Shown here piece by piece: positions 5,368-53,622 of a stretch of DNA of 64,000 nt (positions within the stretch are counted from its first letter, which is position 1; each line of letters begins with the position of its first letter). Origin of the DNA: Pseudomonadota bacterium (GTDB taxonomy: Bacteria; Pseudomonadota; Alphaproteobacteria; GCA-2731375). Below the pieces are notes generated by a model, which saw nothing but the letters and a program-made list of their open reading frames with translations, was not told the origin of the DNA and made no database searches. The stretch is taken from contig JAQBYC010000001.1 of NCBI GenBank assembly GCA_027623205.1, positions 121-64,120 of the forward strand, given 5' to 3'. The translations under genes and the position numbers were made by a program.

Positions 5368-5470
5368 GAGCAATATTCAATTAACCGGCGTCGCTCTTGC
5401 GACTTAAGTAATTGGTTCAATTGCTCTATTCCTAAAGAGTCCGAGCATGCTTTAAGGCAACATGCGCTAG
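5368..5470 (+). repeat. Dispersed AT-rich MITE/REP-like element, copy A (full length, forward)
   Basis: GAGCAATATTCAATTAACC...GTCGCTCTTGCGAC hairpin...CTTAAGTAATTGGTTCAATTGCTCTATTC...GCATGCTTTAAGGCAACATGC hairpin...CTAG; the terminal CTA provides the stop codon of the minus-strand BVMO gene. Confidence 0.85.
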
Positions 5471-6954
5471 GAAACCAGGTCGTATTCTTCCAGATTTGGC
5501 GCGGCCATGTCCTCGCAGAAGCGGTCGAAGGTGAAGGGCCACATGGCCGGGTTGCCGTTCTTGTCCAGATACCAGCTTTGGCAGCCGGTCACCCAGACGG
5601 TGTCTTTCATGGCCTCTTTCAGGGCCGCGTTGAAGCGGTCCGTGGCGTCCTGCCGGGCGGAGATTTCCCTGGCCGCGCCGCTGCGCCAGCTCTCGATCAA
5701 CTGCATGATATAGCCCAACTGCCGCTCGGAAATATCGATCAGGGAAAAATTGCCGATGGGACTGTTGGGCCCCACCAGCATGAAAAAATTCGGGAAGCCG
5801 GGAATGGCGATGGAGCGATGGGCCTGGGTCGCCTCGGCCCAGACATCCTTTAAATCAACGCCGTCCTTGCCGATCAATGCCATGGGCCGCATGAAGCTGT
5901 GGCCGTCGAAGCCGGTGGCCAGGACCAGCACATCCAGTTCATGCAAACGGCCATCCCCGGTCCGCAGCCCGGCCGCCTCCACCCGTTCGATGGGCGCGGT
6001 GACCAGTTCGGCATTGGGCTGCTGGATCGCTTCGTAGAAGCCATCGGAAACGATCAGCCGTTTGCAGGCCGCCTGGTAATCCGGCGTCAACCGGGCCTTC
6101 AGCTCCGGGTCGCGCACGTTGTCTTCCAGGTTCGCCAGACAGGCGTCTTCCACCCGCTGCATCTGCGCCTTGTCGCCGATCACCGCCCGGCCGAAGGTAT
6201 CGGCGAACAGACGGGTCAGGGAGGCGTGCAGATCGTCCATGGCTTGCGGTTGGTGGCGGAAGACTTCCTTTTCCTGCTCGGAGAAGGCCGGGTTCTCCTG
6301 GGGAAAAATCCATTGTGCGGTGCGCTGGAACAACGACAGATGTTTCGCCCTGTGCACGATGTCGGCGGTAATCTGCACGGCGGTGGAGCCGGTGCCGACG
6401 ATGCCGATGCGTTTGCCGTCCAGGGGCGCCTCATGGTTCCAGCGGGCGCTGTGAAAGACCGCGCCGGCGAAATCGTCCAGGCCGGCGATGTCCGGGTAGA
6501 CCGGGTGATGCAGAACCCCGGTGGCCGAGATCACGATATCGACCACATCGATCTCCTCGCCGCCGATTTCGAGGTGCCATTTGCCGTCCCGGTAGGCCGC
6601 GCGGGTGATCTCGCTGTTGAAGCTGACGAAGCTTTCGACGTTGTATTGTTTCGCCACGCTTTCGAAATAAGCCTGAATTTCCGCGCCGGGGGAGAAACGA
6701 TGGCTCCATTCGGCGTTCGGTGCAAAGGAATAGCGGTACATGTGCGAGGGGACGTCGCAGCTCAGGCCCGGATAGGTATTCTCGCGCCAGGTGCCGCCCA
6801 GGCGGTCCGCCTTTTCATAGACGGTGAAATCCGTGATGCCGGCGGCCTGCAGCTTGATCGCCGTCAGGATGCCCGACATGCCGCCGCCGATCACCGCGAT
6901 CCTGGGCGACCGCCTGGTCGTGCGCCCGGCGTCTGAATTCAGTTGCTCGTTCAT
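5467..6954 (-). CDS. Type I Baeyer-Villiger / flavin-containing monooxygenase
   Basis: 495 aa with a GGGMSG FAD motif, the BVMO fingerprint [11 protein letters not shown] and a second Rossmann motif [11 protein letters not shown]. Confidence 0.8.
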
Positions 6955-7121
6955 CGTTCATCGTATCCCAAAATAACCCTGTCCGAACGCTGATGGTCTT
7001 CATAGCAATAATGTCGCGCCTGCGGCAAAAGCAAGGGCGCGGCAAAAAGCCACATCTGGCATCTATCAAGGGGGCCGAATGCGCTCTAAGTTTGATGCTG
7101 TTGTGGAATGAGGAGAGGACC

Positions 7122-8435
7122 ATGGCGAAATACCTGAAACAGGGTCTGGGCCAGGCCGAGGTGGACGAGGCCGACGCCAAGGTGCGGACCCAGGTGGAGA
7201 CTATTCTGGCCGATATCCAGGCGCGCGGCGACCTGGCGGTGCGGGAATTGTCGGAAAAGTTCGACGCCTGGAGCCCGGCAAGCTTCCGCCTGTCCGAAAC
7301 GGAGATCGAGGCGGCCATGTCAAAGGTCGCCAAGCGGGACCTGGACGATATCCGCTTCGCCCAGGAACAGGTGGGCAATTTCGCCCGCCATCAAAAGGCC
7401 GCCTTGCGGGACGTGGAGGTGGAAACCATGCCCGGCGTGGTGCTGGGGCACAAGAATATCCCGGTGAATTCCGTGGGCTGCTATGTGCCGGGGGGCAAAT
7501 ATCCCATGGTCGCCTCGGCCCACATGAGCGTGGTGACCGCCAAGGTGGCCGGCGTGCCCCGCATCGTCGCCTCCGCTCCGCCCCAGGGCGGCGCGCCACA
7601 CCCCGCCATTGTCGCGGCCATGCATATGGGCGGGGCCGACGAGATCCTGGTACTGGGCGGTATTCAGGCGGTCGCGGCGATGGCCCTGGGCACGGAAAGC
7701 GTCCAGGGCGTGGATATGCTGGTGGGGCCGGGCAACATGTTCGTGGCCGAGGCCAAGCGGCAGCTCTATGGCAGGGTTGGTATCGACCTGTTCGCCGGGC
7801 CAACGGAAACCCTGATCATCGCCGACGACAGCGTTGACGGCGAGCTGTGCGCCATCGATCTGCTGGGCCAGGCGGAGCATGGCCCGACCTCGCCGGCTGT
7901 GCTGTTGACCACCTCGGAAGCGCTGGCGCGGGATACCATGGCGGAAATCGAACGGCAGCTGGAGGTGCTGCCGACGGCGGAGATCGCGCGGCAATCCTGG
8001 GCCGACTACGGCGCCGTCATTCTGTGCGACAGCGAAGCGGAGATGTTGGCGGAAGCCAATCGCCTGGCCTTCGAACATGTCCAGGTAATGACCAGGGATC
8101 CGGCGTATTTTCTCGACAACATGACCAACTATGGCGCGCTGTTCCTGGGGCCGCGCACCAATGTATCCTATGGCGACAAGGTCATCGGCACCAACCACAC
8201 CCTGCCGACCAAGCGGGCCGGGCGCTATACTGGCGGCCTGTGGGTCGGCAAGTTCATCAAGACCCATACCTATCAACGGATCCTGACGGATGAGGCCTCC
8301 GCCCTGGTCGGGGAATACTGCTCCCGTCTATGCATGCTGGAGGGCTTCGCCGGCCATGCGGAACAGGCGAACGTGCGGGTGCGCCGCTATGGCGGGCGTA
8401 ACGTGCCGCCCTACACGGCGGTGGAGCCGGCCTGA
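7122..8435 (+). CDS. Histidinol dehydrogenase (HisD) family NAD-dependent dehydrogenase, probable catabolic paralog
   Basis: ATG at 7122 after AGGAGAGG; HisD signature blocks ([35 protein letters not shown]); 1-nt overlap with the next gene. Confidence 0.7.
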
Positions 8436-9364
8436 TGCCCGGGCATATCGGCATCGTCGGCGCCGGTCTGGTCGGCGCGGGCTGGACCATTGTTTTCGCC
8501 CGGGCCGGCGAACAGGTGCGGGTGTATGACGCCGCCGCCGCCATTCGCGACAACTTCATGGCGGTGGTCGGGCAACAGCTGGATGATTTGAAGCGTTACG
8601 ATCTGGTCGATGATCCGGCCGCCATTCTGGCCCGGATCCAGGTTTGCGATAACCTGGCGGCGGCGGTTCAGGGCGCGCGCTTCATCCAGGAATCCGTTCT
8701 GGAACAGGTGGCGGTCAAGCAGGAGATCTCGGCCGCCATTGGCCCGTTGCTGGGTGCGGGGGCCATCGTCGGCAGCTCAACCTCGGGCATTCCCGGTTCG
8801 GCCTTCACGGAAGGCGCGGCGAACCGGGAGCGTTTTCTGGTGACCCATCCGGTCAATCCGCCCTATCTGGTGCCGGTGGTCGAGGTGGTGCCCGCGCCCT
8901 GGACGGCGCAGGACGCGATGGACGGGGCCATGGCCCTGATGGCCGGGGTCGGCCAGTCGCCGGTGCTGGTGCGCCGGGAGATCGAGGGTTTCATCCTGAA
9001 CCGCCTGCAGGGCGTTCTGTTGCGCGAAGCCTGGGCCCTGTTCGAGGCGGGTTATGCCAGCACCGCCGATATCGACAAGACGGTGTCCGAGGGCCTGGGC
9101 CTGCGCTGGTCGTTCATGGGCCCGTTCGAAACCATCGATCTGAACGCGCCGGGCGGGGTCGCGGATTATGCCGAACGCCTGGGCCCGCTGTATCATGCGA
9201 TCCAGAAATCCCGCACCGATCCACAACCCTGGAGCGGTGACTTGATCGACCGGGTCGATGGCGAACGGCGGCGGGCCCTTGCCATGGACGATCTAGGGGC
9301 CCGGCGCAATTGGCGCGACCGCCGCCTGATGGCCCTGGCCGCCCACAAGGCCGGACAGGAATAA
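8435..9364 (+). CDS. 3-hydroxyacyl-CoA dehydrogenase family protein (L-carnitine dehydrogenase-like)
   Basis: N-terminal NAD-binding IGIVGAGLVGAGW; 3HCDH N- and C-terminal domain architecture over 309 aa. Confidence 0.7.
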   Translation: MPGHIGIVGAGLVGAGWTIVFARAGEQVRVYDAAAAIRDNFMAVVGQQLDDLKRYDLVDDPAAILARIQVCDNLAAAVQGARFIQESVLEQVAVKQEISAAIGPLLGAGAIVGSSTSGIPGSAFTEGAANRERFLVTHPVNPPYLVPVVEVVPAPWTAQDAMDGAMALMAGVGQSPVLVRREIEGFILNRLQGVLLREAWALFEAGYASTADIDKTVSEGLGLRWSFMGPFETIDLNAPGGVADYAERLGPLYHAIQKSRTDPQPWSGDLIDRVDGERRRALAMDDLGARRNWRDRRLMALAAHKAGQE

Positions 9365-9386
9365 AACGATTCACGGAGACGTCCCC

Positions 9387-10352: not shown

Positions 10353-10990
10353 CCGGCGGCATCATTTTGTGGGGCGCCATTTCGCTGCGGGCCCTGCGGG
10401 TCCATTGGGCCCTGCAGGAGCTGGGCCTGCCCTACGCGTGCAGGCCGATCCAATCGCGTAGCGGGGAAACCCTGACGGCGGAATTTACCCGGCGGAATCC
10501 AAAGCAAAAGATTCCCTGTCTGCAGGACGGTGATTTCACCCTGACGGAAAGTCCGGCCATCGTGAATTATCTGTTCAACGCCCATGGCGCGGGGACGGAC
10601 GTGTTTTTGCCGGGAACCGCCGAAGAACAGGCCCGCTCCGATGAATGGAGCTATTTTGCCATGATGGAGCTGGATGCCCATTGTCTGTACCTGATCCGGC
10701 GCCACAAGTTTCTGTCCGAGATCTATGGGGAGGCGCCCGTGGCGGTGGCCTCGGCGGCGGAATATTGCCGGAAACAGATCGACGCCGTGGCCCCGGCCGT
10801 CGCCTTGGCCGATCCGTATCTTTTTGGCGACCGGATCGGGGCCGCCGATATCCTGTTGAGCAGCACCTTTGCGTTTGCCCAACGCTACGAGGTGGCGTTG
10901 CCGGAACCGTGCCAGGCCTATATGGAGCGTGCCTTGGCGCGGCCCGCCTACCAGGCTGCCAAGGCCAGAAACGAGGACCTGAATGCCTGA
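10349..10990 (+). CDS. Glutathione S-transferase family protein
   Basis: ATGA overlap with upstream gene; start MTGGIILWG; GST N- and C-terminal domain pattern; the annotated ORF start at 10175 was rejected in favour of the coupled internal ATG. Confidence 0.65.
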   Translation: MTGGIILWGAISLRALRVHWALQELGLPYACRPIQSRSGETLTAEFTRRNPKQKIPCLQDGDFTLTESPAIVNYLFNAHGAGTDVFLPGTAEEQARSDEWSYFAMMELDAHCLYLIRRHKFLSEIYGEAPVAVASAAEYCRKQIDAVAPAVALADPYLFGDRIGAADILLSSTFAFAQRYEVALPEPCQAYMERALARPAYQAAKARNEDLNA

Positions 10991-12323
10991 AAATGCCCGC
11001 GATAATCTGGAGGCGGCCCTGGGGGTCATCGGGCGCCATGATGCAGCCATCAAGGCCATGGTGACGGTGACCGCGGAACAGGCGCGGGACGCCGCCGATC
11101 TGGCCGACCAGGCGGCGCGGGAGGGGCGCTGGCTGGGCCTGTTGCACGGCATGACCATGGCCATCAAGGACAACATTCAGACCGCCGGGGTGCGCACCAC
11201 CTCCGGCTCGTTGCATTTCAAGGATGTGGTGCCGAACCAGGACGCTTTCGTGGTGCAGCGGTTGCGGGCGGCGGGCGCGGTGATTGTCGGCAAGGCCGCC
11301 ATGCACGAGTTGGCCTTCGGCATCAGATCCTACAATCCAGTGAGCGGACAGTGCCGCAATCCGTGGGATCAAAGCCGCATTCCCGGCGGCTCCTCGGGCG
11401 GGTCTGGCGCCGCCGTCGCCGCCGGCATGGCCCAGGCGGCGCTGGGCTCGGACACCGGCGGCTCGGTGCGTCTGCCCGCCGCCATGAACGGCATCGCCGG
11501 TCTGCGTCCCACCCATGGCCGGGTCCCCAACCACGGCTCGACCCCGGTCAGCGCCTCTTATGACACCATCGGCCCCATGGCCCGGCGGGTCGGTGATCTG
11601 GCCCGTATCCTGGCGGTCACCGCCCAGGGCGAGCCGGGCGCCGCGCCGACCGCCGCGCCGGACCTGGGCAATTTCCTGCCTACATTGAACGATGGCGTGG
11701 CCGGCCTGCGCCTTGGCCTGCCGCTGAACCACTATTTCCTGAATTGCGACGACGATATCGCCGAGGCCGTAATGACGGCGGTGCGGGCCCTGGAAGCACA
11801 GGGCGCGCGGATCGTCGAGGTTGATGTCGAAGGGGCCGAGACCACGCATCAATGGGCGACCATCCAAATCTATGCCGACGCCTGCGCCTTTCATGCCGAA
11901 CGCCTGGACCGCCATCCCGAGCTGTTCTCACCTGCCGTGCTGGAGCGCATGCTGGTCGGGCGCGGCTTTACGGCCGTGGACTACGCCAACGCCTGCCGGG
12001 CGCGCGAGACCTGGCAGCGCGGTCTTGCCCGCCTGTACCAGGATATTGATATCCTGATTTCACCGACCACGCCGGCGCCGCCGCCGCCGATCGCGGAAGA
12101 CAAAAGCCTGCTGGAGGCGACCAGGGATGCCTCGCGCAACACCTATGCGGGAGGCTTTGGCGCCAATCCCGGCCTGTCATTGCCCTGCGGCTTCGGCGGC
12201 GACGGCCTGCCCATCGGCCTGCAATTGGAAGCGGCCTGGTGGCGCGAGCCAATGTTGCTGCGGGCGGGCATGGCCTATCAGGCGGTGACCGATTGGCACC
12301 TGACCGAACCGCCGTTGCCGTAG
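10983..12323 (+). CDS. Amidase (amidase-signature family)
   Basis: AS-family signature GGSSGGSGAAVAAG...GSDTGGSVRLPA over 446 aa; 8-bp overlap with the upstream GST gene. Confidence 0.8.
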   Translation: MPENARDNLEAALGVIGRHDAAIKAMVTVTAEQARDAADLADQAAREGRWLGLLHGMTMAIKDNIQTAGVRTTSGSLHFKDVVPNQDAFVVQRLRAAGAVIVGKAAMHELAFGIRSYNPVSGQCRNPWDQSRIPGGSSGGSGAAVAAGMAQAALGSDTGGSVRLPAAMNGIAGLRPTHGRVPNHGSTPVSASYDTIGPMARRVGDLARILAVTAQGEPGAAPTAAPDLGNFLPTLNDGVAGLRLGLPLNHYFLNCDDDIAEAVMTAVRALEAQGARIVEVDVEGAETTHQWATIQIYADACAFHAERLDRHPELFSPAVLERMLVGRGFTAVDYANACRARETWQRGLARLYQDIDILISPTTPAPPPPIAEDKSLLEATRDASRNTYAGGFGANPGLSLPCGFGGDGLPIGLQLEAAWWREPMLLRAGMAYQAVTDWHLTEPPLP

Positions 12324-12408
12324 AGAAATTTTCAATTGGACTTAAGTAATTGGTTCAATTGCTCTATTCTTTAAAAGTCCGGGCATGTTTTAAGGTAACA
12401 TGCTCTAG
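12323..12408 (+). repeat. Dispersed MITE/REP-like element, copy B (short form lacking the GC hairpin module)
   Basis: GAGAAATTTTCAATTGGACTTAAGTAATTGGTTCAATTGCTCTATTC...GCATGTTTTAAGGTAACATGCTCTAG; its first bases overlap the amidase TAG stop. Confidence 0.85.
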
Positions 12409-15887: not shown

Positions 15888-16289
15888 ATGCCCAAAAAAG
15901 CCCTGAGACTTGGCAAACCCTTTGAGGATACGGTCCTCTTTTCGTTTGGCGTGGTCGCATCCGGACGCTTTCTGCACACGGCCGGGATCACCGCCCGCGA
16001 CCGCGATGGCGCGGTCGTCGGCGCGGACGACATGGCCGCTCAGGTGCGGCAATGTTTCAACAACCTCGAGGATATTCTCACCGCGGCCGGCGCCGATTTC
16101 AGTCAGGTGGTGAAATACATGATCTACACCACGGACATCGAAAGATACGACCAGGACACCCGCGACGTGCGCGCGCGCTATTTCGTTGACCGCCCGGCCT
16201 GCACGTTGGTCGAAGTTTCCAGGCTGATACACCCGGACATGCTGGTCGAGATCGAGGCCATCGTGAATCTTGCGGACGAGCCGGACTAG
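15888..16289 (+). CDS. RidA/YjgF/TdcF family reactive-intermediate deaminase
   Basis: 133 aa with the typical RidA family pattern (ARYFVD...PACTLVEVSRL). Confidence 0.75.
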   Translation: MPKKALRLGKPFEDTVLFSFGVVASGRFLHTAGITARDRDGAVVGADDMAAQVRQCFNNLEDILTAAGADFSQVVKYMIYTTDIERYDQDTRDVRARYFVDRPACTLVEVSRLIHPDMLVEIEAIVNLADEPD

Positions 16290-16304
16290 CGGACGGCATT
16301 GTCA

Positions 16305-16340
16305 CGTTCGGGCAATTCTTAAGGAATTGGCTCAACGGCT
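16305..16340 (+). repeat. Degenerate relic of the dispersed element core
   Basis: TCTTAAGGAATTGGCTCAACGGCTTATACC matches the ACTTAAGTAATTGGTTCAATTGCTCTATTC core at about 22 of 30 positions, in an AT-rich gap. Confidence 0.45.
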
Positions 16341-16386: not shown

Positions 16387-17262
16387 TTAATTAGGGCATA
16401 CGGCGCTGGTCAGGATTTTTTTGCCTTGCTTTATTTTAATCCTGATCTGTCTTTCATAGGCGGCGGCCTTGTCCATAAGTTCGCCGTCGGCGGGGCAAAA
16501 TTTGGTGGCGAACGTCGCCAGTTTCATGGGACTGAGCGAGCGAAGCAGTTTCAGATGCCGCTCACTGGTGGGCTCCAGAACAAGCTCGAACTTATCATCG
16601 TCCGTATACCGGCTTGCCTCGACGATCCAGCTTTCGTCGGGCCTGACAATTTGGCCATGGGTCAACAGCAGGGCGATCGCCGCCTTGCGCTCTTTCGCCG
16701 GCAACTCCGGACTTCGCAAATAGACTGCCAGTATGGCGATCACCACCAAAGCCAGGGCAGAGGTGATGATGATACCGATCTTATTCAATTGCGCGAATTG
16801 CAGCCCCTGCATCAATGGCGCGCGCCTCTTTTTGCCGCTGGATTTGCCGCGTGGGCGGCCGCCTGGTTTTGTCTTAGGTACCGGTTTCCCTTGTTTCGGC
16901 TCTTGCGGCGTTACATCATGCCCCGCCGCCGACCGTTTTCCATCCTCTTTCAACTGCCGCAGAAGCGAGATAATTTCAACGCGGACCTGCGCCATATCGC
17001 GGCCGGCACCGTCGGGTGCGATAATTGCCGCCAACCGCTGCTCGTAGTCCTCCAGCCGCGCGCGTTCATCCTCGTGCACCAGCAGTTTCGTTAACGCGAA
17101 ACGGGTGCTTTGTTCCAAGGCATCCAGGCTATGCGCCAGCTCGATCACCGCAATCAAGCCGTTCTTGGGATCCTCGAAAAGAAGTTCCCAATCGCCGACG
17201 CTGTGGGGCGCGTGCGCGTTGTCCGCGACGGAACCAGAAAGTTTTTCTGCGTTGTCTGCCAT
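16387..17262 (-). CDS. Hypothetical single-pass membrane protein (cytoplasmic N-domain, Lys/Pro/Arg-rich linker, one TM helix, periplasmic C-domain)
   Basis: ATG at 17262 (MADNAEKL) with AGGA upstream; TM segment IGIIITSALALVVIAILAVYL; no recognisable domain; lower GC than flanking genes. Confidence 0.5.
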   Translation of the reverse strand: MADNAEKLSGSVADNAHAPHSVGDWELLFEDPKNGLIAVIELAHSLDALEQSTRFALTKLLVHEDERARLEDYEQRLAAIIAPDGAGRDMAQVRVEIISLLRQLKEDGKRSAAGHDVTPQEPKQGKPVPKTKPGGRPRGKSSGKKRRAPLMQGLQFAQLNKIGIIITSALALVVIAILAVYLRSPELPAKERKAAIALLLTHGQIVRPDESWIVEASRYTDDDKFELVLEPTSERHLKLLRSLSPMKLATFATKFCPADGELMDKAAAYERQIRIKIKQGKKILTSAVCPN

Positions 17263-17422
17263 TGATCCTACGACTTGCCGATGATTGCTATCCGCAAGTG
17301 GATGAATTTGCCACGCATCGGAAAAATAATGGTTAACGTAATGCCGCGGCCATATTCCGGCAGGCATGCGGCCGGCGGCGACGCCATGCATAACCAGAAC
17401 GATCTAGAACATAGGAGGTTCC

Positions 17423-18397: not shown

Positions 18398-18436
18398 GGC
18401 GGCGTTTTGAATAACTGCCGTCGCTGATGCGAACCC

Positions 18437-18562
18437 GATTAACTGAAAATTTCTCAGGAGCATGTTTCCTTGTGGCATGCCCGGACTCTTTAAGAATAGA
18501 GCAATTGAACCAATTACTTAAGTCGCGAGAGCGACTTCGATTAATTGAAAATTGCTCTAAAT
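18437..18562 (-). repeat. Dispersed MITE/REP-like element, copy C (full length, reverse orientation, with an extra terminal TIR-like module)
   Basis: Reverse complement reads GAGCAATTTTCAATTAATCGAAGTCGCTCTCGCGACTTAAGTAATTGGTTCAATTGCTCTATTC...GCATGCCACAAGGAAACATGC...GAGAAATTTTCAGTTAATCGG; overlaps the stop codon of the 18557 minus-strand gene. Confidence 0.85.
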
Positions 18563-19720
18563 GTAGAGATCCTGAAGGTTGTAATCCTTGACCAGGGATT
18601 GACGGGTTTGTTCATTCCAGCGGTTTTCCACTTCCCGTCCTGCGAGCGGCTGATAGCAATAACGCGGTTCATCGGGAAATCGCTGTTGCCGCGCGTCGGC
18701 CGCGATCGCAATCATGCGGCATCGTTCGTCTATGCGGTCAGCGTCATAGGTCTCGACCGTGCCGTCCAACTTGCTGGTGGTGACGTTCAGAACCCGCCGG
18801 CGCGGAAAAAACCCGGCATTCAGCGTGATGCGGCGGTCCGGCGAAGAATTGGCGAACGAGCCGTGTACCAGTTGCCGATTCGTGATGAACACATCGCCCG
18901 CGCCGCACAGCATGGGCACCGCGCCGTCCAAACGTTCGGAGCCGCTTTGCGCCTTCAATAGGCGAATATCCACCTTGCCCAGCTTGTGACTGCCGGGCAA
19001 TACCCAGACGCAGTTTCCAGCGGTACTGGGGTAAAGCTGCGCCATGAAATTGAAACCATGCGCGCCTTCATCCCAATCCGCCGCCTGCCAATGGGTCGTC
19101 CCGTCCTGATGCCAGGCGACCGACGGCCCGAGGCCCGGTTCCTTGACAAAGGTGACCTCGTTATAGGGCACGAAATCGGCGCCATTGACGGCCTCGGCCA
19201 CCGCCAGCAGTCCCGGGTGACCATAAAGCCGCAGACAGGACGGCATCAGTTGCAGATTGCCCAATAGCAATTCGATGGTCCAATCCGGCGACCCATCGGA
19301 TGGCGTCGGGTCGAGCATCTTGACCGGGTGCCGGCCCTTGTTTTTTGTCGTGCCGCCCACAGGGTCGCTCAAGGGTTTCGCCCAGCGAAACGATGGCCGG
19401 GCGAACCCAGGATCCTTGACCGGGTCGCCGTGCCTGTTCCGGCCGCCGTCCGGCGCCACGGGCGCGCCGGCAAGGACCCGTTCCACATCGGCGCGAAGCT
19501 CCGCCAGCTCTGCTGCCGCAATGACATTCTCGAAAACATAGAAACCGTGTTGCCAGTAAGCCTCCAGGATGCCGCGATCAAGCTTGCCGTCGTCGGCAAA
19601 CCCGATCGGTCCACGATTGCCCAGGACATGGGCCCGTTTTTCGCCTTCGCGGCTATATGTCGCCATAACCCGGGCATGTTCGGCAGCGGAAATTGTGCCG
19701 GTCGTTCGCGGATCACTCAT
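18557..19720 (-). CDS. Phytanoyl-CoA dioxygenase (PhyH) family Fe(II)/2OG dioxygenase, long form
   Basis: ATG at 19720 (MSDPRTTG) with GGAAG upstream; WHQDG HxD motif and a second His in HGF; 387 aa. Confidence 0.7.
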   Translation of the reverse strand: MSDPRTTGTISAAEHARVMATYSREGEKRAHVLGNRGPIGFADDGKLDRGILEAYWQHGFYVFENVIAAAELAELRADVERVLAGAPVAPDGGRNRHGDPVKDPGFARPSFRWAKPLSDPVGGTTKNKGRHPVKMLDPTPSDGSPDWTIELLLGNLQLMPSCLRLYGHPGLLAVAEAVNGADFVPYNEVTFVKEPGLGPSVAWHQDGTTHWQAADWDEGAHGFNFMAQLYPSTAGNCVWVLPGSHKLGKVDIRLLKAQSGSERLDGAVPMLCGAGDVFITNRQLVHGSFANSSPDRRITLNAGFFPRRRVLNVTTSKLDGTVETYDADRIDERCRMIAIAADARQQRFPDEPRYCYQPLAGREVENRWNEQTRQSLVKDYNLQDLYI

Positions 19721-19764
19721 AATGCTTCCATTGTCCTGGTTGGATAAACGGTTCATTCCGGCCG

Positions 19765-37232: not shown

Positions 37233-37248
37233 TTCATCCGCCCCGTGT

Positions 37249-38046
37249 TCAGCCGATACGACCGGTAATATAAGCCTGTGTCCGCCCATCTACCGGGTTG
37301 GTAAAAATTTGTCCTGTCTCGCCTTGTTCAAGCACCTCGCCCAGATGAAAGAACGCCGTTCTTTGCGAGACGCGTGCCGCCTGCTGCATCGAGTGGGTAA
37401 CGATCACAATGGTGTAGCGCGCGCGAAGCTCGTCGATCAATTCCTCAACCTTGGCGGTGGCGATCGGGTCGAGGGCCGAGCAGGGTTCGTCCATCAGAAT
37501 AACCTCGGGCTCAACGGCGATGGCGCGGGCGATGCAGAGGCGCTGTTGCTGACCACCGGAAAGGCCGGTGCCGGGCTCGTCAAGGCGCTCGCGCACCTCG
37601 TCGATCAGACCGGCCCGCCGCAGGCTGGCTTCGACGATGTCGTCCAGTTCGGCTCGGCTGTCGGCCAGTCCATGGATGCGTGGGCCGTAGGCCACGTTCT
37701 CGTAAATCGATTTCGGGAACGGGTTCGGTTTCTGGAAGACCATGCCGACGCGGGCGCGGAGCTCAACCACATCAATGGCCGGACTGTAGATGTCCTCGCC
37801 ATCAAGGCTGATTTGTCCCGTCACGCGGCAACCATCAATGACATCGTTCATCCGGTTGAGACAACGCAGGAAGGTGCTTTTGCCGCAACCCGACGGCCCG
37901 ATCAGGGCGGTGACTGTATTGGCCTCGATCTGGACATTGACCGAGAACAGCGCCTGCTTATTTCCGTAGCTGACATCAACCCCCGCCGCGCGCATCTTGA
38001 TGTTCGCGGCGGGGGCCTCTTGATTACTCATGGCAATGGCGTTCAT
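37249..38046 (-). CDS. pstB: Phosphate ABC transporter ATP-binding protein PstB
   Basis: Walker [18 protein letters not shown] signature, Walker B ILMDEP. Confidence 0.9.
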
Positions 38047-38062
38047 TCTCGGTCGGTCCTAT

Positions 38063-39361
38063 CTACCAGCGCTGCTCGAACCGCCGCCTTAGCAGCACGG
38101 CAGCAAGATTCATAACAATCAAAAACGCCAACAGGACCACGATCGCCGCCGCGGTGCGCTCGGCAAAGGCCCGCTCGGGCGCGTCCGCCCAAAGAAAAAT
38201 CTGTACCGGTAACACCGTCGCGGGGTCGGTCGGAGACGTGGGCACGTCGACGATAAAGGCGACCATGCCGATCATCAACAACGGCGCCGTTTCGCCAAGG
38301 GCGCGGGCCATACCGATGATGGTACCGGTCAAAATGCCTGGCATGGCCAATGGCAAAACATGGTGCGCCACCACCTGCATGGGGCTGGCGCCAATGCCAA
38401 AGGCGGCATCTCGGATTGATGGTGGCACGGCCTGCAAGGCGGCACGGCCGGCGATGATCACCGTTGGCAACGTCATCAACGCCAATACCATGCCGCCTAC
38501 CAGCGGTGCCGATCGGGGCAGTCCCAGAAAACCAAGCAGGACCGCCAAGCCAAGCAGACCAAAAACGATCGAGGGCACCGCCGCCAGATTGTTGATGTTG
38601 ACTTCGATGAGGTCGGTCCAGCGGTTCCTGGGTGCGAATTCTTCCAGATAAACGGCCGTCATGACACCCAGGGGAAAGGCGATAACGAGACAGATCGAAA
38701 GCGTCAGAAGCGATCCGACGGCGGCGCCCCGGAGACCTGCCAACTCGGGCTCGCGGCTATCTGCCGCCATGAACAGGCGCCAGTTGAACCGCTGCGCCAA
38801 CTGCTCCCGGTTTTCCAGCTTGTCCAGCCACGCGGCCTGTTGGGCGTCGATCCTGTTGCCATGCTGCAAGCCGCCAGCGACCAGTCCCTTGATGTACATG
38901 TCAGCATCATCCGAGGCCGGCAGCCAGACTGTCCGCCGCCCGCCGATCAGGCCCTGATCCGCCAACACCATTTCCCGCAGCTCGAAAGCCGCTCCGGCGC
39001 TCATGATTTTGCGCAGGGCGCGCCGGCCCCGCCGGTCTTTGATCTCGGGAAACAGTTTCCCGAGGCTGATCTTGACGAGCGCATCATAGTTGGCGCGTGC
39101 CAGCGTCGTTGGATTTCGGGTTCCCTCTGGGTCAATCAGCGCTTCGTCAAAATGAATTTCTAGCGCAATCTCCGTTTGGCCAAGCGCCGTATAGGCCTTG
39201 GAGAAAATTGTGGCGAACAGCCCCACAAGAAAGATCAGCGATACCGCCACTGCCACCATGCCGTATGAACGGAAACGCTGCTCCGCCCGCCGCCGCCGCA
39301 GCCGGTCCTTGGATTGGCGCCGTGCCGCTATTACGGCTGGATACTTGACGTTTTCAGTCAT
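38063..39361 (-). CDS. pstA: Phosphate ABC transporter permease PstA
   Basis: Long-form permease with the ABC TM EAA-like loop (ARALGETAPLL); 8-bp overlap with pstC. Confidence 0.85.
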   Translation of the reverse strand: MTENVKYPAVIAARRQSKDRLRRRRAEQRFRSYGMVAVAVSLIFLVGLFATIFSKAYTALGQTEIALEIHFDEALIDPEGTRNPTTLARANYDALVKISLGKLFPEIKDRRGRRALRKIMSAGAAFELREMVLADQGLIGGRRTVWLPASDDADMYIKGLVAGGLQHGNRIDAQQAAWLDKLENREQLAQRFNWRLFMAADSREPELAGLRGAAVGSLLTLSICLVIAFPLGVMTAVYLEEFAPRNRWTDLIEVNINNLAAVPSIVFGLLGLAVLLGFLGLPRSAPLVGGMVLALMTLPTVIIAGRAALQAVPPSIRDAAFGIGASPMQVVAHHVLPLAMPGILTGTIIGMARALGETAPLLMIGMVAFIVDVPTSPTDPATVLPVQIFLWADAPERAFAERTAAAIVVLLAFLIVMNLAAVLLRRRFEQRW

Positions 39362-40733
39362 ACTTCTCTCGATATTTGCGCACAGTCACCAGCGCCACCA
39401 GATTCAACCCCAGCGTCACCACGAATAGCACGAGGCCAAGCGCGAAGGCGGCCAGCGTCTTGGCGCTGTCAAATTCCTGATCGCCAACCAGAAGGGTAGC
39501 GATCTGCACCGTCACGGTGGTCACGGCCTCGAACGGATTGGCCGTCAGGTTCGCCGCCAGGCCCGCTGCCATGACAACGATCATGGTTTCGCCGATGGCC
39601 CGGCTCAGCGCCAGCAGGATGCTGCTGATAATACCGGGCAAGGCCGCGGGCAGCACCACCTGGCGGATCGTCTCCGATCGTGTGGCCCCAAGTCCGTAAG
39701 ACGCCTCGCGCAGGCTTTGCGGCACAGCCGTGATGACATCGTCGGAAAGCGACGAGATGAAGGGAATAATCATGATCCCCATGACGACGCCGGCGGCTAG
39801 TGCGCTTTCGCTGGAAACGTCCAGGCCAAAGAACCCGCCGGCGTCACGGATCAAAGGTGCGACCGTCAGCGCCGCGAAGAACCCGTACACAACGGTCGGA
39901 ATACCGGCCAGAATTTCCAGCACCGGTTTGATCACGTCGCGGACCGGTTTCGCCGCGTATTCCGCCAGATAAATCGCCGAAAAGAGACCGGCCGGCACCG
40001 CTACTGCCATTGCGATCACACTAATTAGCAGCGTGCCGGCAAAGATCGGAACCGCGCCAAAGCGACCGGAAGAGCCCACCTGATCGGTCCTTAGCGCGGT
40101 CTGCGGGCTCCAATCAAGGCCAAACAAAAAGTCCCAGACCGGCACTTTCTCGAAGAACCGTATTGTTTCAAACAGCAGCGAGAGCACAATGCCAATGGTG
40201 GTGAAGACCGCCAGCGTCGAACTGACGATCAGGGCAACGCGGATACTGCGCTCCACCGCGCGTCGGGCGGCGAAGGTCGGCGCCACCACACGCCAGCCGC
40301 GCCATAGCCCGGCGCCGGCAACCATGAGACTGATAACGGCAAGAGACACAACGGCGATTTGGCGCAGACCGAGATAACGTTGCGCCGCCTCACTCATGGC
40401 GGCATCACTTGTGCCGAGGTCGATGCCCCGCGCCAAATTGTGAATGTTATCATAGATCAGTGCCAGGCGTTCCGCTGGCAGCGCCTTGAGGTCTGAGGGC
40501 AAGGCGGAGAGCACTAGCCAGCGGATCGCCGGCGGTTCCAAGGCCAGCCAGATGGCAATGAGCGCCAGTGCCGGCAGGCCGCACCAGAGCAGCACATAGC
40601 CGCCGTAGTGGTTCGGCAGCGAGTGCAACGCCTTGGCGTGGCCGCCGGCGAGAGCCAGGGCCCGGCCGCGTCCCATCCGAAATCCGATCGCGGCCAGCGC
40701 CAGGATCGCGATGATGATAAGTAGATTGGACAT
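39354..40733 (-). CDS. pstC: Phosphate ABC transporter permease PstC
   Basis: Polytopic permease with SRAIGETMIVV EAA-like motif; position between pstS and pstA. Confidence 0.85.
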   Translation of the reverse strand: MSNLLIIIAILALAAIGFRMGRGRALALAGGHAKALHSLPNHYGGYVLLWCGLPALALIAIWLALEPPAIRWLVLSALPSDLKALPAERLALIYDNIHNLARGIDLGTSDAAMSEAAQRYLGLRQIAVVSLAVISLMVAGAGLWRGWRVVAPTFAARRAVERSIRVALIVSSTLAVFTTIGIVLSLLFETIRFFEKVPVWDFLFGLDWSPQTALRTDQVGSSGRFGAVPIFAGTLLISVIAMAVAVPAGLFSAIYLAEYAAKPVRDVIKPVLEILAGIPTVVYGFFAALTVAPLIRDAGGFFGLDVSSESALAAGVVMGIMIIPFISSLSDDVITAVPQSLREASYGLGATRSETIRQVVLPAALPGIISSILLALSRAIGETMIVVMAAGLAANLTANPFEAVTTVTVQIATLLVGDQEFDSAKTLAAFALGLVLFVVTLGLNLVALVTVRKYREKYD

Positions 40734-40758
40734 CGGCCGGGCCTAATCTCGGTTTGGC

Positions 40759-41787
40759 TCACATGGACAGGTTGGCAAGAGCCGCCGCCTGGGCCCGGAC
40801 CTTGGCGCGCTCCGCATCCGGCAATGGGATCAGTCCCTTATCCGCCAGGTAGCCATCGGGCCCCCAGGCCTTGTCGGCGGTGAACTCGGCCACGAAGTCG
40901 CGCAGACCAGGGACGGTCCCCACATGGGCTTTTTTGACGTAGAAGTAGAGAGAGCGGGAGACCGGATATTGGCCCGCCGCGATGGCCTCGAATTCCGGCA
41001 TGCTGCCGTTGACCCGGCTGCCTTGCAGCTTGTCGGCGTTCTGATCCAGAAAGCTAAAGCCGAAGATGCCGAAGGCGGCCGGGTTGGTCTCCAGCTTCTG
41101 CACGATCAAATTATCGTTCTCGCCCGCTTCAATGAAGGCACCGTCTTCGCGCAAGGTATGGGCAACCGCCTTGAACCGCTTTTTGTCCGCCTTGCGCATG
41201 GCAGCCAGCATTGGAAAGGTCTTGGCTCCGCCTTCCAAGGCCAGTTCGACGAAGGCATCACGCGTGCCGGAGGTTGGCGGAGGGCCCAGAACCTCGATCT
41301 TGCTCATGGGCAGCGAAACATCGATGTCGCGCCACGTCATGTATGGGTTCGCCACCAGCTTGCCGTCCACCGGCACGTCTTTGGCCAGAGCCAGGAAGAG
41401 CTGCTTGAGGCTTATTGACATCAAGCCGGACTTTCGGGAGTTGGCCAGCACGATGCCGTCAAAGCCGATCTTGACCTCGACGATATTGACGACGCCGTTT
41501 TTGGCGCAGCGCTGAACCTCGGACGTCTTGATCCTTCGGGATGCGTTGGTGATGTCGGGATAGTCAACACCAAGGCCGGCGCAGAACAGTTTCAAGCCGC
41601 CGCCCGAACCGGTGCTCTCCACCACGGGGGTTTTAAAACTGCTGGTCTTGCCGAAGTGTTCGGCGACCGCGGTGGCGAAAGGGAAGACGGTGCTGGAACC
41701 GACGACCCGGATCTGGTCCCGCGCGGCGGCGGCGTTGGTGATCATCACCGCCGCCAAGGCTGCCAGTGCCAATGATTGCTTGAGCAT
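40759..41787 (-). CDS. pstS: Phosphate ABC transporter substrate-binding protein PstS
   Basis: Signal peptide; PBP-fold phosphate-binding family (VVGSSTVFPFATAVAE...TSGTRDAF). Confidence 0.85.
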   Translation of the reverse strand: MLKQSLALAALAAVMITNAAAARDQIRVVGSSTVFPFATAVAEHFGKTSSFKTPVVESTGSGGGLKLFCAGLGVDYPDITNASRRIKTSEVQRCAKNGVVNIVEVKIGFDGIVLANSRKSGLMSISLKQLFLALAKDVPVDGKLVANPYMTWRDIDVSLPMSKIEVLGPPPTSGTRDAFVELALEGGAKTFPMLAAMRKADKKRFKAVAHTLREDGAFIEAGENDNLIVQKLETNPAAFGIFGFSFLDQNADKLQGSRVNGSMPEFEAIAAGQYPVSRSLYFYVKKAHVGTVPGLRDFVAEFTADKAWGPDGYLADKGLIPLPDAERAKVRAQAAALANLSM

Positions 41788-41891
41788 AAAAAGGTTCTCC
41801 TGTGCTCGCTATAGGTTACGGCGGTGAATTCCACCATGACCGGATAGCTAGCCCTCGAACGTTGCTCTTTTATGACAACTGTATTGCAGTT

Positions 41892-42965
41892 TTATGACAG
41901 TCGCGGAGGCGCGACGGTTCGTTCCTCGAGCGGCAAAAAGACAGTGAACCTGTTGCCGCGGCCCGCGCTGCTTTCAATGCTCAAACGGCCGCGATGGTGA
42001 TTGACGATATGCTTGACGATGGCCAGCCCCAGGCCCGTACCGCCCATGTCGCGCGAGCGCCCCTTGTCAATGCGGTAGAAACGCTCGGTCAGCCTCGGCA
42101 AGTGTTCGGGCGCGATCACCTCGCCCTGATTTGTCACCGCGATGGCCATGCCCGGGCCGCCAACATCGGGCATTCGGGATAGCGTTTTCGCCTCGAGCGC
42201 AACCGGCGCATTCCCGGATCCGTACTTAACAGCATTGGCCAGGAGATTGTGGAAGACCTCGAACAACTCGTCCCTGTCACCCGGTACGGGGGGGAGGTCC
42301 AGACCAAGATCCGTAGTGATATCCATGCCTCTCTCCGCCGCCCGCGCGGCGACGGATTTCATGACCTCGGCTAAAAGTTCTGAAATATCGACAGCGCCAG
42401 TCGGTGGAATATGTTCGCCCGCCTCTACCCGGGAGAGCGAAAGGAGATCATCCACCAATCGGGCCATGCGCTTCGCCTCGCCGTCCATGATGTCAAGGAA
42501 GCGCTCCCGTGCTTGCGTATCGTCGCGCGCGGGTCCCTTGAGCGTCTCGATGAACCCTACCAGGGACGAAAGCGGCGAGCGCAACTCGTGGCTCACGTTG
42601 GCGACAAAGTTGGCCCGCATCCGCTCCACTTCGCGCGCCGCCGTCACGTCATGCAAAAGACAGAGTGCCCGCGCGCCGTCGCTGACGCCTGAGGGCAGAG
42701 AGGCCACGTGCATCTCGAACGTCTGCTGGACCGGCACCGCCTGCTCAATGACTGCTCCCGCCACCGGCGCCCCGGCAAGGACCGCGCCTACCGCATCGAG
42801 CACCTCCGGATGGCGCAACGACATCGCCAGATCACTGCCCGTGACAAGCCCACCGAACAAGTCGCGCGCCAAGCTGTTCGCGGCCATGACCCGCCGCCTG
42901 CCATCAATCAGGACGGCGGGGTCTCTCAAGGCTTCCAGCAAGGCGCTTGTGTTCTCATCCGTCAT
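41892..42965 (-). CDS. phoR: Phosphate regulon sensor histidine kinase PhoR (PAS-HisKA-HATPase; no N-terminal TM region)
   Basis: H-box NVSHELRSPL, N/G1/G2 ATPase boxes (HNLLANAVKY, GTGLGLAIVK); begins directly with a PAS-like domain. Confidence 0.8.
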   Translation of the reverse strand: MTDENTSALLEALRDPAVLIDGRRRVMAANSLARDLFGGLVTGSDLAMSLRHPEVLDAVGAVLAGAPVAGAVIEQAVPVQQTFEMHVASLPSGVSDGARALCLLHDVTAAREVERMRANFVANVSHELRSPLSSLVGFIETLKGPARDDTQARERFLDIMDGEAKRMARLVDDLLSLSRVEAGEHIPPTGAVDISELLAEVMKSVAARAAERGMDITTDLGLDLPPVPGDRDELFEVFHNLLANAVKYGSGNAPVALEAKTLSRMPDVGGPGMAIAVTNQGEVIAPEHLPRLTERFYRIDKGRSRDMGGTGLGLAIVKHIVNHHRGRLSIESSAGRGNRFTVFLPLEERTVAPPRLS

Positions 42966-43056
42966 CGCAGGGCCTGCTCAAATTTTTTGCCGCCGTCAGG
43001 GTGCCCGGCAGGGCGGCAGCGGTCAATATTACAATAGTCGTTCGGGGCGGCCTGTT

Positions 43057-43113
43057 GCGACTTAGGTAATTGGTTCAAGTTCTCTATTCTGCAGATTCTG
43101 AGTACATTCCATG
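43057..43113 (+). repeat. Dispersed MITE/REP-like element, copy F (right-half fragment)
   Basis: GCGACTTAGGTAATTGGTTCAAGTTCTCTATTCTGCAGATTCTGAGTACATTCC, 92 bp upstream of the phoR start. Confidence 0.75.
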
Positions 43114-43154
43114 GACGCCGAAACAGGACTAATACGCCTTGAAATCACAGATGT

Positions 43155-43215
43155 CGGGACATTTTTACGTTAAGTGGTCCGACTTCAATTGTGTCTTCAG
43201 TGTCGCATGTCGGGA
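43155..43215 (+). repeat. Second short repeat family, copy 2
   Basis: Contains the identical 44-mer AAGTGGTCCGACTTCAATTGTGTCTTCAGTGTCGCATGTCGGGA; the 9-mer ATGTCGGGA also occurs immediately upstream (43151-43159). Confidence 0.8.
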
Positions 43216-43323
43216 TGTGACCGCTCTGCGAGATGGGTAACAGTTTTTGGTCTACGATAACTTTTACCTCCAGCGCCATTATCTCGGCAGAACAACGTTC
43301 AAGCGACATCTTTTGGGGGCTTC

Positions 43324-44286
43324 CTATTGACCGGGCACTGCTGAATTATAGCTGGTGTGATGGCCTGTGATTTGGGGGGCGGCAGCGGCCCTTTCGCGGT
43401 CCGCCGCGACTTCCGCCAGAACCCAGTCGCGAAAGACCCGGACTTTAGGGTGTTGCAGGGCGCGGGCTGGATGGACCAGATAGTAGGCGAATTCCGCCGG
43501 CAGCTCCAACTCGAAGGGCCGCACCAGGCGCCCCTCGGCCAGGTGATTGCCCAACAAGGCGCTGCGGGCCAGGGCAACGCCCTGGCCGTCCACGGCCGCG
43601 TTGATGACCAGGGCGGACAAATTGTAGCCCGGTCCCCGATCGGGATCGACATCTTCGACGCCGGCCGCCAGCAACCAACGCCGCCAGCTTTCCCGCATAT
43701 CGTCATGCAGCAGGGTGTGATAGCGCAGATCCTCGGGGCGCAGCAGCGGGTGGGCGCCGTGCAACAGGGCCGGGCTGCAGACCGGAAAAACTTCCTCGGT
43801 CATCAAGGGCAGCACCTCCAGGCCCGGCCAATGGCCGTTGCCGTAACGAATTGCCAGATCCACATCGTCGCGGGCAAAATCCACGACTTCGTCGCTGGCC
43901 GCCACCCGCACATCGATGTCGGAATGCAGGGCGCGAAAGCGGCCCAGGCGCGGTACCAGCCAGGCAGACGCGAACGAGGCCAGGGTTGTAACCGTCAAAA
44001 TGCCGCTATCCTGGCGTTTGGTCAGGCGGTCCGTGGCCGCCTCCATCAGATCCAGCCCCTCGCGCACCGCCGCTGAATAGTTCTGGCCATTCTCCGTCAG
44101 CACGATGGCCCGGCCCCGGCGGCGAAACAGCGCCAGGCCCAGCCATTCTTCCAGGGCCTTGACCTGGTGGCTTATGGCGGCCTGGGTGACGTGCAGTTCC
44201 TGGCCGGCGCGGGTGAAGCTCAATTGCCGGGCCGCCGCTTCGAACGCACGCAGGGCATTGAGGGGAGGAAGCTTTCGATCCGCCAT
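43324..44286 (-). CDS. LysR-family transcriptional regulator (GcvA-like)
   Basis: N-terminal HTH LNALRAFEAAARQLSFTRAGQELHVTQAAISHQVKALE; LysR substrate-binding domain; 320 aa. Confidence 0.85.
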   Translation of the reverse strand: MADRKLPPLNALRAFEAAARQLSFTRAGQELHVTQAAISHQVKALEEWLGLALFRRRGRAIVLTENGQNYSAAVREGLDLMEAATDRLTKRQDSGILTVTTLASFASAWLVPRLGRFRALHSDIDVRVAASDEVVDFARDDVDLAIRYGNGHWPGLEVLPLMTEEVFPVCSPALLHGAHPLLRPEDLRYHTLLHDDMRESWRRWLLAAGVEDVDPDRGPGYNLSALVINAAVDGQGVALARSALLGNHLAEGRLVRPFELELPAEFAYYLVHPARALQHPKVRVFRDWVLAEVAADRERAAAAPQITGHHTSYNSAVPGQ

Positions 44287-48250: not shown

Positions 48251-48259
48251 GGGGCGGAT

Positions 48260-52954: not shown

Positions 52955-52972
52955 GTCAAGCGCGAGAACGGT

Positions 52973-53266
52973 CTAGAAACCTTGCCCGCAACTGGTAATT
53001 TCGCGCAAAAAGTTCTGCACGAAGACCAACAGCAGGATCAAAACCACGGGCGAGATGTCGATGCCCCCCATCCTTGGCAAGATGCGCCGAATGGGCCCCA
53101 GGGCGGGTTCGGTGATCTTGTAAAGGAAATCGCCGACCATAAAAACAAAGCGATTTTGTGTGTTGATCACATTGAAGGCCACGAGCCAGGACATCACAAC
53201 CTGGATCAGAATCATCCAGAAGTACAACATGATCACGCTTGCAACCAATTCAACGATGGAACACAT
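52973..53266 (-). CDS. yggT: YggT family membrane protein
   Basis: Short two-TM protein with the YggT pattern; start MCSIVELV chosen over the longer ORF. Confidence 0.65.
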   Translation of the reverse strand: MCSIVELVASVIMLYFWMILIQVVMSWLVAFNVINTQNRFVFMVGDFLYKITEPALGPIRRILPRMGGIDISPVVLILLLVFVQNFLREITSCGQGF

Positions 53267-53419
53267 GCGAAGTCCAAGCCCTTTTGTGGCGCCGCAACGG
53301 CAACAGCCCCAGATGTAATGCCCAGCAGCCCCCAACGCAAGCAGACATGTTGGCGGCGATTGGGCATCCCGGCCCTTGACAGTCCTGGATGATGGTTCCT
53401 ATATGCCAGCGGAAATTTC

Positions 53420-53495
53420 GGGGCCGTAGCTCAGTTGGGAGAGCGCCACGTTCGCAACGTGGAGGTCAGCGGTTCGATCCCGCTCGGCTCCACCA
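53420..53495 (+). tRNA. tRNA-Ala (anticodon CGC), CCA encoded
   Basis: Cloverleaf GGGGCCGTAGCTCAGTTGGGAGAGCGCCACGTTCGCAACGTGG...TTCGATCC...CGGCTCCACCA; G3:U70 Ala identity pair; anticodon loop TTCGCAA. Confidence 0.9.
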
Positions 53496-53520
53496 AAATC
53501 CGTTTTGCACGGAATGACCG

Positions 53521-53622
53521 GCTAGCGCATGTTTACTTAAAACATGCTCAGACTCTTTAAAATTTGAGTAATTGAACCAATTACTTGGATCGCCAAACCG
53601 AATCCAATTAAATTGGACATGG
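53521..53622 (-). repeat. Dispersed MITE/REP-like element, copy G (reverse orientation), 25 bp downstream of tRNA-Ala
   Basis: Reverse complement reads ...CCAATTTAATTGGATTCGG...CAAGTAATTGGTTCAATTACTC...GCATGTTTTAAGTAAACATGCGCTAGC. Confidence 0.8.

Follow-up and report, generated by a model that had tools for sequence, protein, structure and literature searches.

The stretch of DNA analysed here (the window) comprises 64,000 nucleotides (nt) of contig JAQBYC010000001.1 from the alphaproteobacterial assembly GCA_027623205.1, and it carries a dispersed family of short, AT-rich repeat elements between its genes. An earlier interpretation made from the letters alone (the sequence-only reading) had described a dispersed, non-coding, structured, modular and mobile-looking family, a description borne out by the individual copies, by related genomes, by the sharp ends of the element and by its presence or absence among relatives. 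Copies were counted with a search for a 30-mer of the core, a profile hidden Markov model (HMM) built on 53 copies from the window and related genomes, and a covariance model. Allowing up to three mismatches, the core 30-mer matched six times in the window and never in 100 shuffled sequences. The profile HMM returned exactly seven copies (E 1e-37 to 5e-16), and the covariance model, run with filters off, recovered the same seven and nothing further. The family is thus real, and the at least eight copies first counted resolve into seven solid copies plus a truncated tandem copy and a decayed relic, none of them expected by chance (Table 1). Copies occur in both orientations at a density of about one per 8 kb. 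Their GC content ranges from 33 to 44%, somewhat wider than the 35–40% first given for these AT-rich elements, and that of the window is 61.5% rather than the 64% quoted for the genome. Two extents were also revised: the segment 18437-18562, first taken as a single copy, is a full copy joined to a truncated one, and the copy placed at 28640-28720 ends near 28700 and has no 3' hairpin.

Table 1 Copies of the repeat element in the 64-kb window, with their ends and neighbouring genes
Feature	Position	Strand	Detected by	Ends and neighbouring genes
Copy 1, full	5366-5470	+	core search, HMM, covariance model	5' dinucleotide TG, a mutated TA; element proper 5368-5467, then TA-G; CTA at 5467-5469 is the TAG stop of the convergent FMO-like gene 5467-6954 (-)
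Copy 2, without apical GC hairpin	12321-12408	+	core search, HMM, covariance model	TAG at 12321-12323 is the stop of the amidase gene 10983-12323
Decayed core relic	16305-16340	+	23/29 core positions by eye; HMM E = 1.7, not significant	convergent intergenic region, 16 nt past the CTAG stop of gene 15888-16289
Truncated second copy, left arm and GC hairpin only	18421-18455	-	HMM (E = 9e-5)	joined head to tail to copy 3; junction dinucleotide common to both
Copy 3, full	18456-18559	-	core search, HMM, covariance model	TAG at 18559-18557 (-) is the stop of the PhyH-family gene 18557-19756 (-); 3' dinucleotide CT
Copy 4, arm 1 only, ends ...TTCTC-TA, without linker or arm 2	28640-28700	+	core search, HMM, covariance model	between the ArsR-family gene 28164-28556 (-) and the FAD oxidoreductase gene 28874-30331 (-)
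Copy 5, full, TA on both sides	35589-35693	+	core search, HMM, covariance model	92 nt downstream of the phoB-like response regulator gene 35785-36477 (-), antisense
Copy 6, fragment with 3' half of GC hairpin, core, linker and decayed arm 2, without left arm	~43057-43113	+	core search, HMM; covariance model (E = 0.02 as full-length match)	upstream of the phoR-like kinase gene 41892-42965 (-)
Copy 7, full, left arm diverged	53522-53629	-	read by eye, HMM, covariance model	between tRNA-Ala(CGC) 53420-53495 (+) and the open reading frame (ORF) 53674-53979 (-)

The element is about 105 nt long and has the layout Y-TA-(GAGCAATTTTCAATTAAT... apical GC hairpin ...TAATTGGTTCAATTGCTC)-TA-linker-(GAGC...GCTC hairpin)-TA-G. 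Alignment of 67 copies from the window and from loci of metagenome-assembled genomes (MAGs) gave the consensus cTAGAGCAATTTTCAATTAATCGGAGTCGC-TCTC-GCGACTTAAGTAATTGGTTCAATTGCTCTATTCTTAAGAGTCTGAGCGCATTTTCTTCGAATGCGCTCTAGg. In arm 1, the left end (GAGCAATT..CAATTA) pairs with the core (TAATTG..AATTGCTC) around a short central GC hairpin, which is 14 nt longer in some copies (GTCGCCACCGTAGCTTATTTGGCGCGAC). A linker of ~13 nt follows, and then arm 2, a hairpin of 9-10 bp. This is the order of modules already given by the sequence-only reading (an inverted repeat of the core, an optional GC hairpin, the core, a conserved 3' hairpin and CTAG). The terminal inverted repeats that it named are present too, but only the outermost 7 nt (CTAGAGC / GCTCTAG) are involved; a longer terminal match is imperfect (13/19 nt) and confined to the GCATG subtype, and the long inverted repeat, which is also the best one, is internal, pairing the left end with the core in arm 1. 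Deletions between internal CAATT repeats were seen in copy 2 and in the copy at L069:4170-4242. Copy 2 probably lost its apical GC hairpin in this way, and the modular variants of the family would come from such deletions.

The consensus folds into two arms with z scores of about −7 on either strand, as RNA or as DNA. The RNAalifold consensus lacked arm 1, so the structure was set by hand and then tested on 39 full copies. In these copies, 92.8% of the cells pair, as compared with ~35% when the partners are slid by 1-3 columns. Consistent with the earlier claim that the 3' hairpin keeps its pairing despite substitutions, arm 2 shows double changes at 6 of its 10 pairs, giving GCGCA, GCATG, GCACA and GTATG types, and arm 1 is nearly invariant in sequence. 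Mismatches of the G-T type number 35 and those of the A-C type 22, or 23 and 22 once one loop-closing pair is left out. This balance gives no sign of a strand-specific RNA; the pairing is strand-symmetric.

Conservation stops sharply at both ends of the element, giving way to background composition. At the 5' boundary the aligned copies read Y (C 39, T 18), T 57, A 58 and G 64, and at the 3' boundary C 59, T 42, A 45 and G 55. The copies thus read Y-TA-[GAGC...GCTC]-TA-G, with TA flanking both ends in most of them, as a TA duplication inside a YTAG target would produce; this bears out the earlier guess of a TA or CTAG target. Flanks other than TA are mostly transitions, and because the two ends do not match each other, they look like the result of later decay.

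Comparison with related genomes revealed sites with and without the element. The site occupied at L043:6750-6858 (SI072_bin90) reads CCGC-TA-GGATG in two relatives (L021 and L031; 82-89% nucleotide identity), and this empty C-TA-G site doubles as the upstream gene's stop codon. Another apparent empty site, L021:4178-4320 compared with L043, was rejected as an internally deleted relic. At the amidase junction, copy 2 is absent from seven metagenome relatives (80-89% amino-acid identity), in all of which the amidase stop has kept its codon position, whether written TAA, TGA or TAG. An HMM search of 80 related metagenome loci found no copy, and L170 and L171 likewise had none; in closer relatives, ~105 kb are without a full copy, as compared with seven copies in the 64-kb window. 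One decayed copy, detected by the covariance model only (E = 0.039), lies at L169:3540-3627 (-), in the spacer where a TusA gene and an acetyltransferase gene converge; it has 34% GC and no longer folds, and it belongs to a close relative, whose aspartate-semialdehyde dehydrogenase (asd) is 94% identical to that of the window. In two species with just ~75% nucleotide identity in the flanks, a copy stands at one and the same TAG stop, which means either that it has been retained since ancient times or that a rare target was used repeatedly. Beyond the carboxylase gene, every relative has lost synteny, so that the sites of the relic and of copy 3 have no counterparts there, and exact-protein look-ups for strain variants of the window returned the same strain only.

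The element therefore has several features of a miniature inverted-repeat transposable element (MITE): it is shorter than ~300 bp, non-coding and multi-copy, carries terminal inverted repeats and is polymorphic in presence or absence between relatives. We consider it likely that the family represents ~105-bp non-autonomous, MITE-like mobile DNA, a two-armed palindromic intergenic repeat of the Bru-RS/CIR type known from Alphaproteobacteria. Mobilisation would occur in trans. A DDE transposase would cut at GAGC...GCTC and insert the element into the TA of YTAG, duplicating TA, and candidate enzymes are those of the IS427 group of the IS5 family of insertion sequences (IS), like IS711 or IS1301, or an IS630-type transposase. 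On both strands the first letter of the element is G, so a TAG stop codon that receives an insertion at its TA would be rebuilt, without harm to the gene. In addition, CTAG is ~8-fold depleted in the window (28 occurrences versus 224 expected from composition), and in such a compact, GC-rich genome, stop codons would be among the few tolerated targets. Copies would then accumulate at stop codons and in spacers between convergent or co-directional genes. The transposase would probably bind the element at its hairpins, which may act secondarily as 3'-end RNA structures.

Copies are found at the 3' ends of genes. Among 60 classified copies, 23 lie between convergent genes, 35 between co-directional genes (21 in sense and 14 in antisense orientation) and 2 between divergent genes. 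In 35 of 67 copies, the terminal TAG of at least one end is the stop codon of the abutting gene; the 5' TAG is the stop of the upstream gene in 27/64 copies, and the 3' CTA that of a convergent gene in 12/62. Part of this excess of 5'-end stops arises because the Y at the 5' flank is asymmetric; with copies carrying C at the 5' flank only, the counts are 17 versus 12. The sequence-only reading had called the elements strictly intergenic. Indeed, no reading frame is interrupted, but in 4 of the 7 window copies the terminal TAG is the stop of a neighbouring gene. Homologues without the element stop at the same codon for three of these window genes, encoding the amidase, the FMO-like protein (TGA in relative L088) and the PhyH-family protein (TGA in L024). 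TAG accounts for 20 of the 54 stop codons in the window, which is unusually frequent.

This placement could also be read as the mark of function. According to this explanation, the element is an exapted cis-acting module that might stabilise RNA 3' ends, terminate transcription in both directions or, as suggested for CIR, supply GANTC sites for CcrM; its spread would be kept by selection, mobility being its origin only. The preference for gene 3' ends, with 23 convergent and only 2 divergent contexts, would suit such a module, as would the many copies that begin exactly at a stop codon, the supply of stops by the 5' end more than by the 3' end, the compensatory changes in arm 2 and the copy shared at one TAG stop by two diverged species. 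However, a consensus scan for sigma-70 promoters and intrinsic terminators, covering 5-19 kb of the window, placed no promoter and no U-tract terminator on any copy, the mismatches are without strand asymmetry, and the 14 antisense copies are antisense to both neighbouring genes. Moreover, copies are absent from close relatives with no visible replacement, and old copies decay. In favour of a methylation role, GANTC sites occur in the apical stem of arm 1 in 34/63 copies (54%) and in the linker in 43/65 (66%), whereas GANTC is ~5-fold depleted in the window as a whole (47 versus ~224 expected), with ~7 of the 47 inside element copies. These sites lie outside the loops and are not invariant. 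The N is barely more variable than the other four positions, which counts against this explanation. We thus regard exaptation as the main cause of the spread of the family as doubtful.

It is far less probable, and already contradicted by the data, that the shared sequence is the operator of a single regulon or that the copies are remnants of one duplicated segment, the two explanations that the sequence-only reading had itself named as ways to refute it. An operator could explain why the core is highly conserved and AT-rich and contains CAATTG-type palindromes. Yet the neighbouring genes are of unrelated function and the copies lie downstream of them, in divergent contexts in only 2/60 cases, which argues against the operator of one regulon. 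Likewise, the flanks of the copies are unrelated to each other, so the copies are not parts of one duplicated segment; both orientations are present, and presence varies among relatives.

A partner transposase was sought in the window and in related loci. Comparison of the 54 called window genes with Pfam identified no transposase or integrase, and no Y1 transposase gene; the earlier statement that the window lacks a transposase holds to this extent, with 5 ORFs having no family match in Pfam or NCBIfam. Two ORFs without such a match, 3389-4048 (-; 219 aa) and 16387-17391 (-; 334 aa), have lower GC contents at third codon positions (GC3), of ~0.65; the former lies inside a 3.4-kb indel and the latter adjoins the relic. 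In ~440 kb of MAG loci, we found no lone element ends, no multi-copy ORFs and no autonomous IS with matching ends.

These results bear on the type of enzyme that might move the element. Instead of a DDE transposase, a Y1 (HUH) transposase could recognise the hairpins, move the element in single-stranded form and insert it 3' of YTAG without duplication, as for a REP/RAYT-like element or a PATE-like derivative of IS200/IS605. The junction string fits TA duplication and insertion after CTAG alike, and the very short outer terminal inverted repeat and the failure to find a DDE partner in the window or the fetched MAG loci would be understandable under such a mechanism. Hairpins stand at both ends as it would predict, arm 2 keeps its pairing by compensatory changes while its sequence drifts, and the pairing at the DNA level is strand-symmetric; the termini, however, are perfectly symmetric (CTAGAGC / GCTCTAG), whereas the ends of IS200/IS605 elements are asymmetric, with cleavage sites offset from the hairpins (IS608, ISDra2). 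Furthermore, neither a conserved GTAG head nor a REP unit of 20-40 nt is present, the copies share no single common orientation, and the called genes of the window include no Y1 transposase. We therefore find single-stranded movement of this kind improbable and favour a MITE mobilised by a DDE enzyme.

To follow the family beyond the window, as the sequence-only reading had suggested, species-representative genomes were scanned with a core pattern of 17 specified bases. Among the matches listed, at least 11 MAG species of marine Alphaproteobacteria carry the element in multiple copies: SI072_bin90 and SI074_bin97, both labelled 'Rhodospirillaceae', and BS150m-G9, SRP200020_co2_21, SRP200020 co5_209, OFTM58, ETNP3_MAG_51, ANT-29, CB11b_AW.37, PW10 and SRP167671_co2_53. 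The asd of the window is 90% identical to that of OFTM58. Matches listed in other phyla lacked the flanking modules, and their number is that expected by chance for a 17-nt pattern. One arm-2 type dominates each genome, which fits lineage-specific amplification. BLAST of the consensus against the plasmids of PLSDB gave no match at E values up to 1. The single match among viral contigs, located inside an AT-rich coding region, was rejected as a chance match.

Known families were then compared with the element. A scan of the window with Rfam at gathering thresholds returned nothing except tRNA-Ala, the tRNA-Ala(CGC) of Table 1 being the only gene reported by Rfam and ARAGORN in the window; a permissive Rfam scan of one copy gave an irrelevant best match (E = 6.8), and a literature search for the sequence of the element found none. 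The nearest counterpart comes from Brucella. In a locus fetched with the BP26 sequence as the query (L172), a repeat of 104-106 nt lies downstream of bp26 at 10826-10931 (TTAGAGCGCGTTTCGATCTGATTGAATCCGATCGGCGCTCTAATCCTTTGTTTTGACGCGCATCTTTTCCGAAAACCGTTTCACACTTTTCGGGATGCGGTCTAG). We take this repeat to be Bru-RS1, a copy of which was reportedly described downstream of bp26 by Cloeckaert et al. in 2000. It folds as two arms with an 11-nt linker (z = −5.6), starts with TTAGAGC, has arm 1 closed by GCTCTA and ends in ...GCGCAT...ATGCGGTCTAG. A GAATC site lies in the loop of arm 1, and the terminal CTA is the stop of a convergent gene. The Brucella copy thus resembles the window family in its alphaproteobacterial host, its length of ~105 nt, its two arms and linker, its identical termini and its GANTC site, and YTAGAGC, GCTCTA, GCGCAT and ATGCGsTCTAG stand at corresponding positions in both. 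It differs in a shorter arm 1 (43 versus 64 nt), a longer arm 2 and the sequence of the interior. Global alignment of this one Brucella copy with the family consensus scored z = 5.1 relative to shuffled sequences, and 2.7 when the 7-nt termini were held fixed. At the corresponding bp26 site, Ochrobactrum has a fragment only. The same Brucella locus also holds a second two-arm repeat of a different type (L172:6575-6665, -), with the long hairpin GCGGG..GAAATCAGTCCAGTGGACTGATTTC..CCCGC; it ends in ...GCACTTTTGGCTCGAAAATGCTCTAG, the same 3' terminal motif as in the window family.

Published descriptions place the element in the same class. Bru-RS1 and Bru-RS2 of Brucella are palindromic repeats of 103 and 105 bp that serve as hot spots for IS711 (Halling & Bricker 1994; PMC3163539, PMC2266754). 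The CIR1-4 elements of Caulobacter and Brucella (Chen & Shapiro 2003, summarised in PMC2229807) measure ~110 bp and consist of two inverted-repeat arms and a linker; they have TA termini and GANTC (CcrM) at the terminal loop, are found only between genes, and are conserved among Alphaproteobacteria, their mobility mechanism being still unresolved according to the review (PMC2229807). As described, CIR match the window family in size, arms and linker, TA termini, GANTC and intergenic location. The GANTC of CIR is, however, in or at the terminal loop, as opposed to the apical stem of arm 1 and the linker here. CIR are also said to reach at most 21 copies per genome, as compared with about one copy per 8 kb in the window.

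The sequence-only reading had compared the family with Correia, RUP and BOX elements, which are not its nearest known relatives; these are Bru-RS and CIR. RUP of Streptococcus pneumoniae and ERIC/RU-1 of enterobacteria, of ~107-127 bp, have terminal inverted repeats of 9 and 7 bp, TA termini, TA target duplication and stable stem-loops, and IS630-Spn1 has been proposed to mobilise RUP in trans (PMC2229807, PMC2759123). As described, however, they form a single stem from 5' to 3' end rather than two arms, and their hosts belong to different phyla. The Correia/NEMIS elements of Neisseria are small, flanked by TA, abundant and often close to genes, and come in long and short forms, with a 24-bp terminal inverted repeat, a single long stem and an IHF site in the 155-bp form (PMC2229807). 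Correia and RUP elements are set apart from the window family by these descriptions, and the family has no Rfam match. With respect to the target, IS711 of Brucella duplicates the TA of YTAR (PMC2266754), IS1301 of Neisseria the TA of AYTAG (PMC2193550), and IS630 of Shigella, as far as a reference in PMC2170065 indicates, prefers and duplicates the TA in CTAG. Such duplications match the Y-TA-G flanks of the element. All three IS, at 0.8-1.2 kb, are autonomous and encode their own transposase, and none was found in the window or the fetched loci. Judged by sequence and published description, the window family appears to be the same kind of element as Bru-RS and CIR; homology with them is plausible, not proven.

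Several observations weigh against a transposase-mobilised MITE of the Bru-RS/CIR type. The window and the ~440 kb of MAG loci yielded neither a transposase nor an autonomous element whose ends match. At 7 nt, the outer terminal inverted repeat is short, and the string CTAGAGC...GCTCTAG would arise equally by insertion 3' of CTAG without duplication. Flanks other than TA, considered as proof of duplication, were rejected on account of the mismatch between the two ends, and the single clean empty site obtained has a filled counterpart whose 5' TA is mutated. With respect to Brucella, the family HMM does not detect L172:10826-10931; the two best matches of the covariance model in that locus fall exactly on the element, with E values of 0.85 and 4.9 that are not significant. 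Finally, the core served as bait in the genome scan, which biases both its apparent conservation across species and the copy numbers, and the genes were called by our own GC3-based heuristic.

Three indels abut copies of the element. The first concerns a complete phoR-pstSCAB-phoU-phoB block (35289-43323), which separates a LysR gene (43324-44286) from asd (34266-35288); LysR and asd are adjacent in four relatives. This block is bracketed by copies 5 and 6 in direct orientation. Outside these copies lies a 60-nt direct repeat (35393-35452 and 43156-43215, 93% identical) that occurs nowhere else in the fetched data, and a remnant of the ancestral LysR 3' end (GGATTAAGCGCTTGAAG) adjoins asd. The second is a 3.4-kb stretch, 2045-5469, that relative L088 lacks; it contains an OmpA-like gene, an unannotated ORF, a DAO-family gene and copy 1, and its right breakpoint is the 3' end of copy 1 and the FMO stop codon. 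The third is seen in a relative's contig in which the FAD oxidoreductase and SBF transporter genes are 115 nt apart; in the window, 28054-28873 has the ArsR-family gene and copy 4 between them. Separately, the amidase gene 10983-12323 has a paralogue at 56852-58219, with which it shares a 91-nt stretch at 74% identity.

A broader proposal, which we put forward as speculative and rather unlikely, is that the window family, Bru-RS and CIR form one ancient alphaproteobacterial superfamily that targets stop codons; it would be mobilised by IS711/IS427 enzymes and kept as a gene-end module comprising a TAG stop, two hairpins and CcrM sites, its copies marking or promoting the gain of gene blocks. 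At the level of assembly, the short-read contigs L001 and L167, both from the same organism, break off within copies of the element, which indicates that the repeat fragments short-read assemblies; it can also mislead the annotation of stop codons and 3' ends in MAGs. The kind of element is already known, and this family, dense and lineage-specific, has an unusually clear association with stop codons. The Bru-RS/CIR class, which is poorly understood, thereby gains a dense family with clear boundaries from uncultured marine Alphaproteobacteria, and this family's GAGC...GCTC ends, its Y-TA-G target and the rebuilding of TAG stops offer clues to how elements of this class may move.

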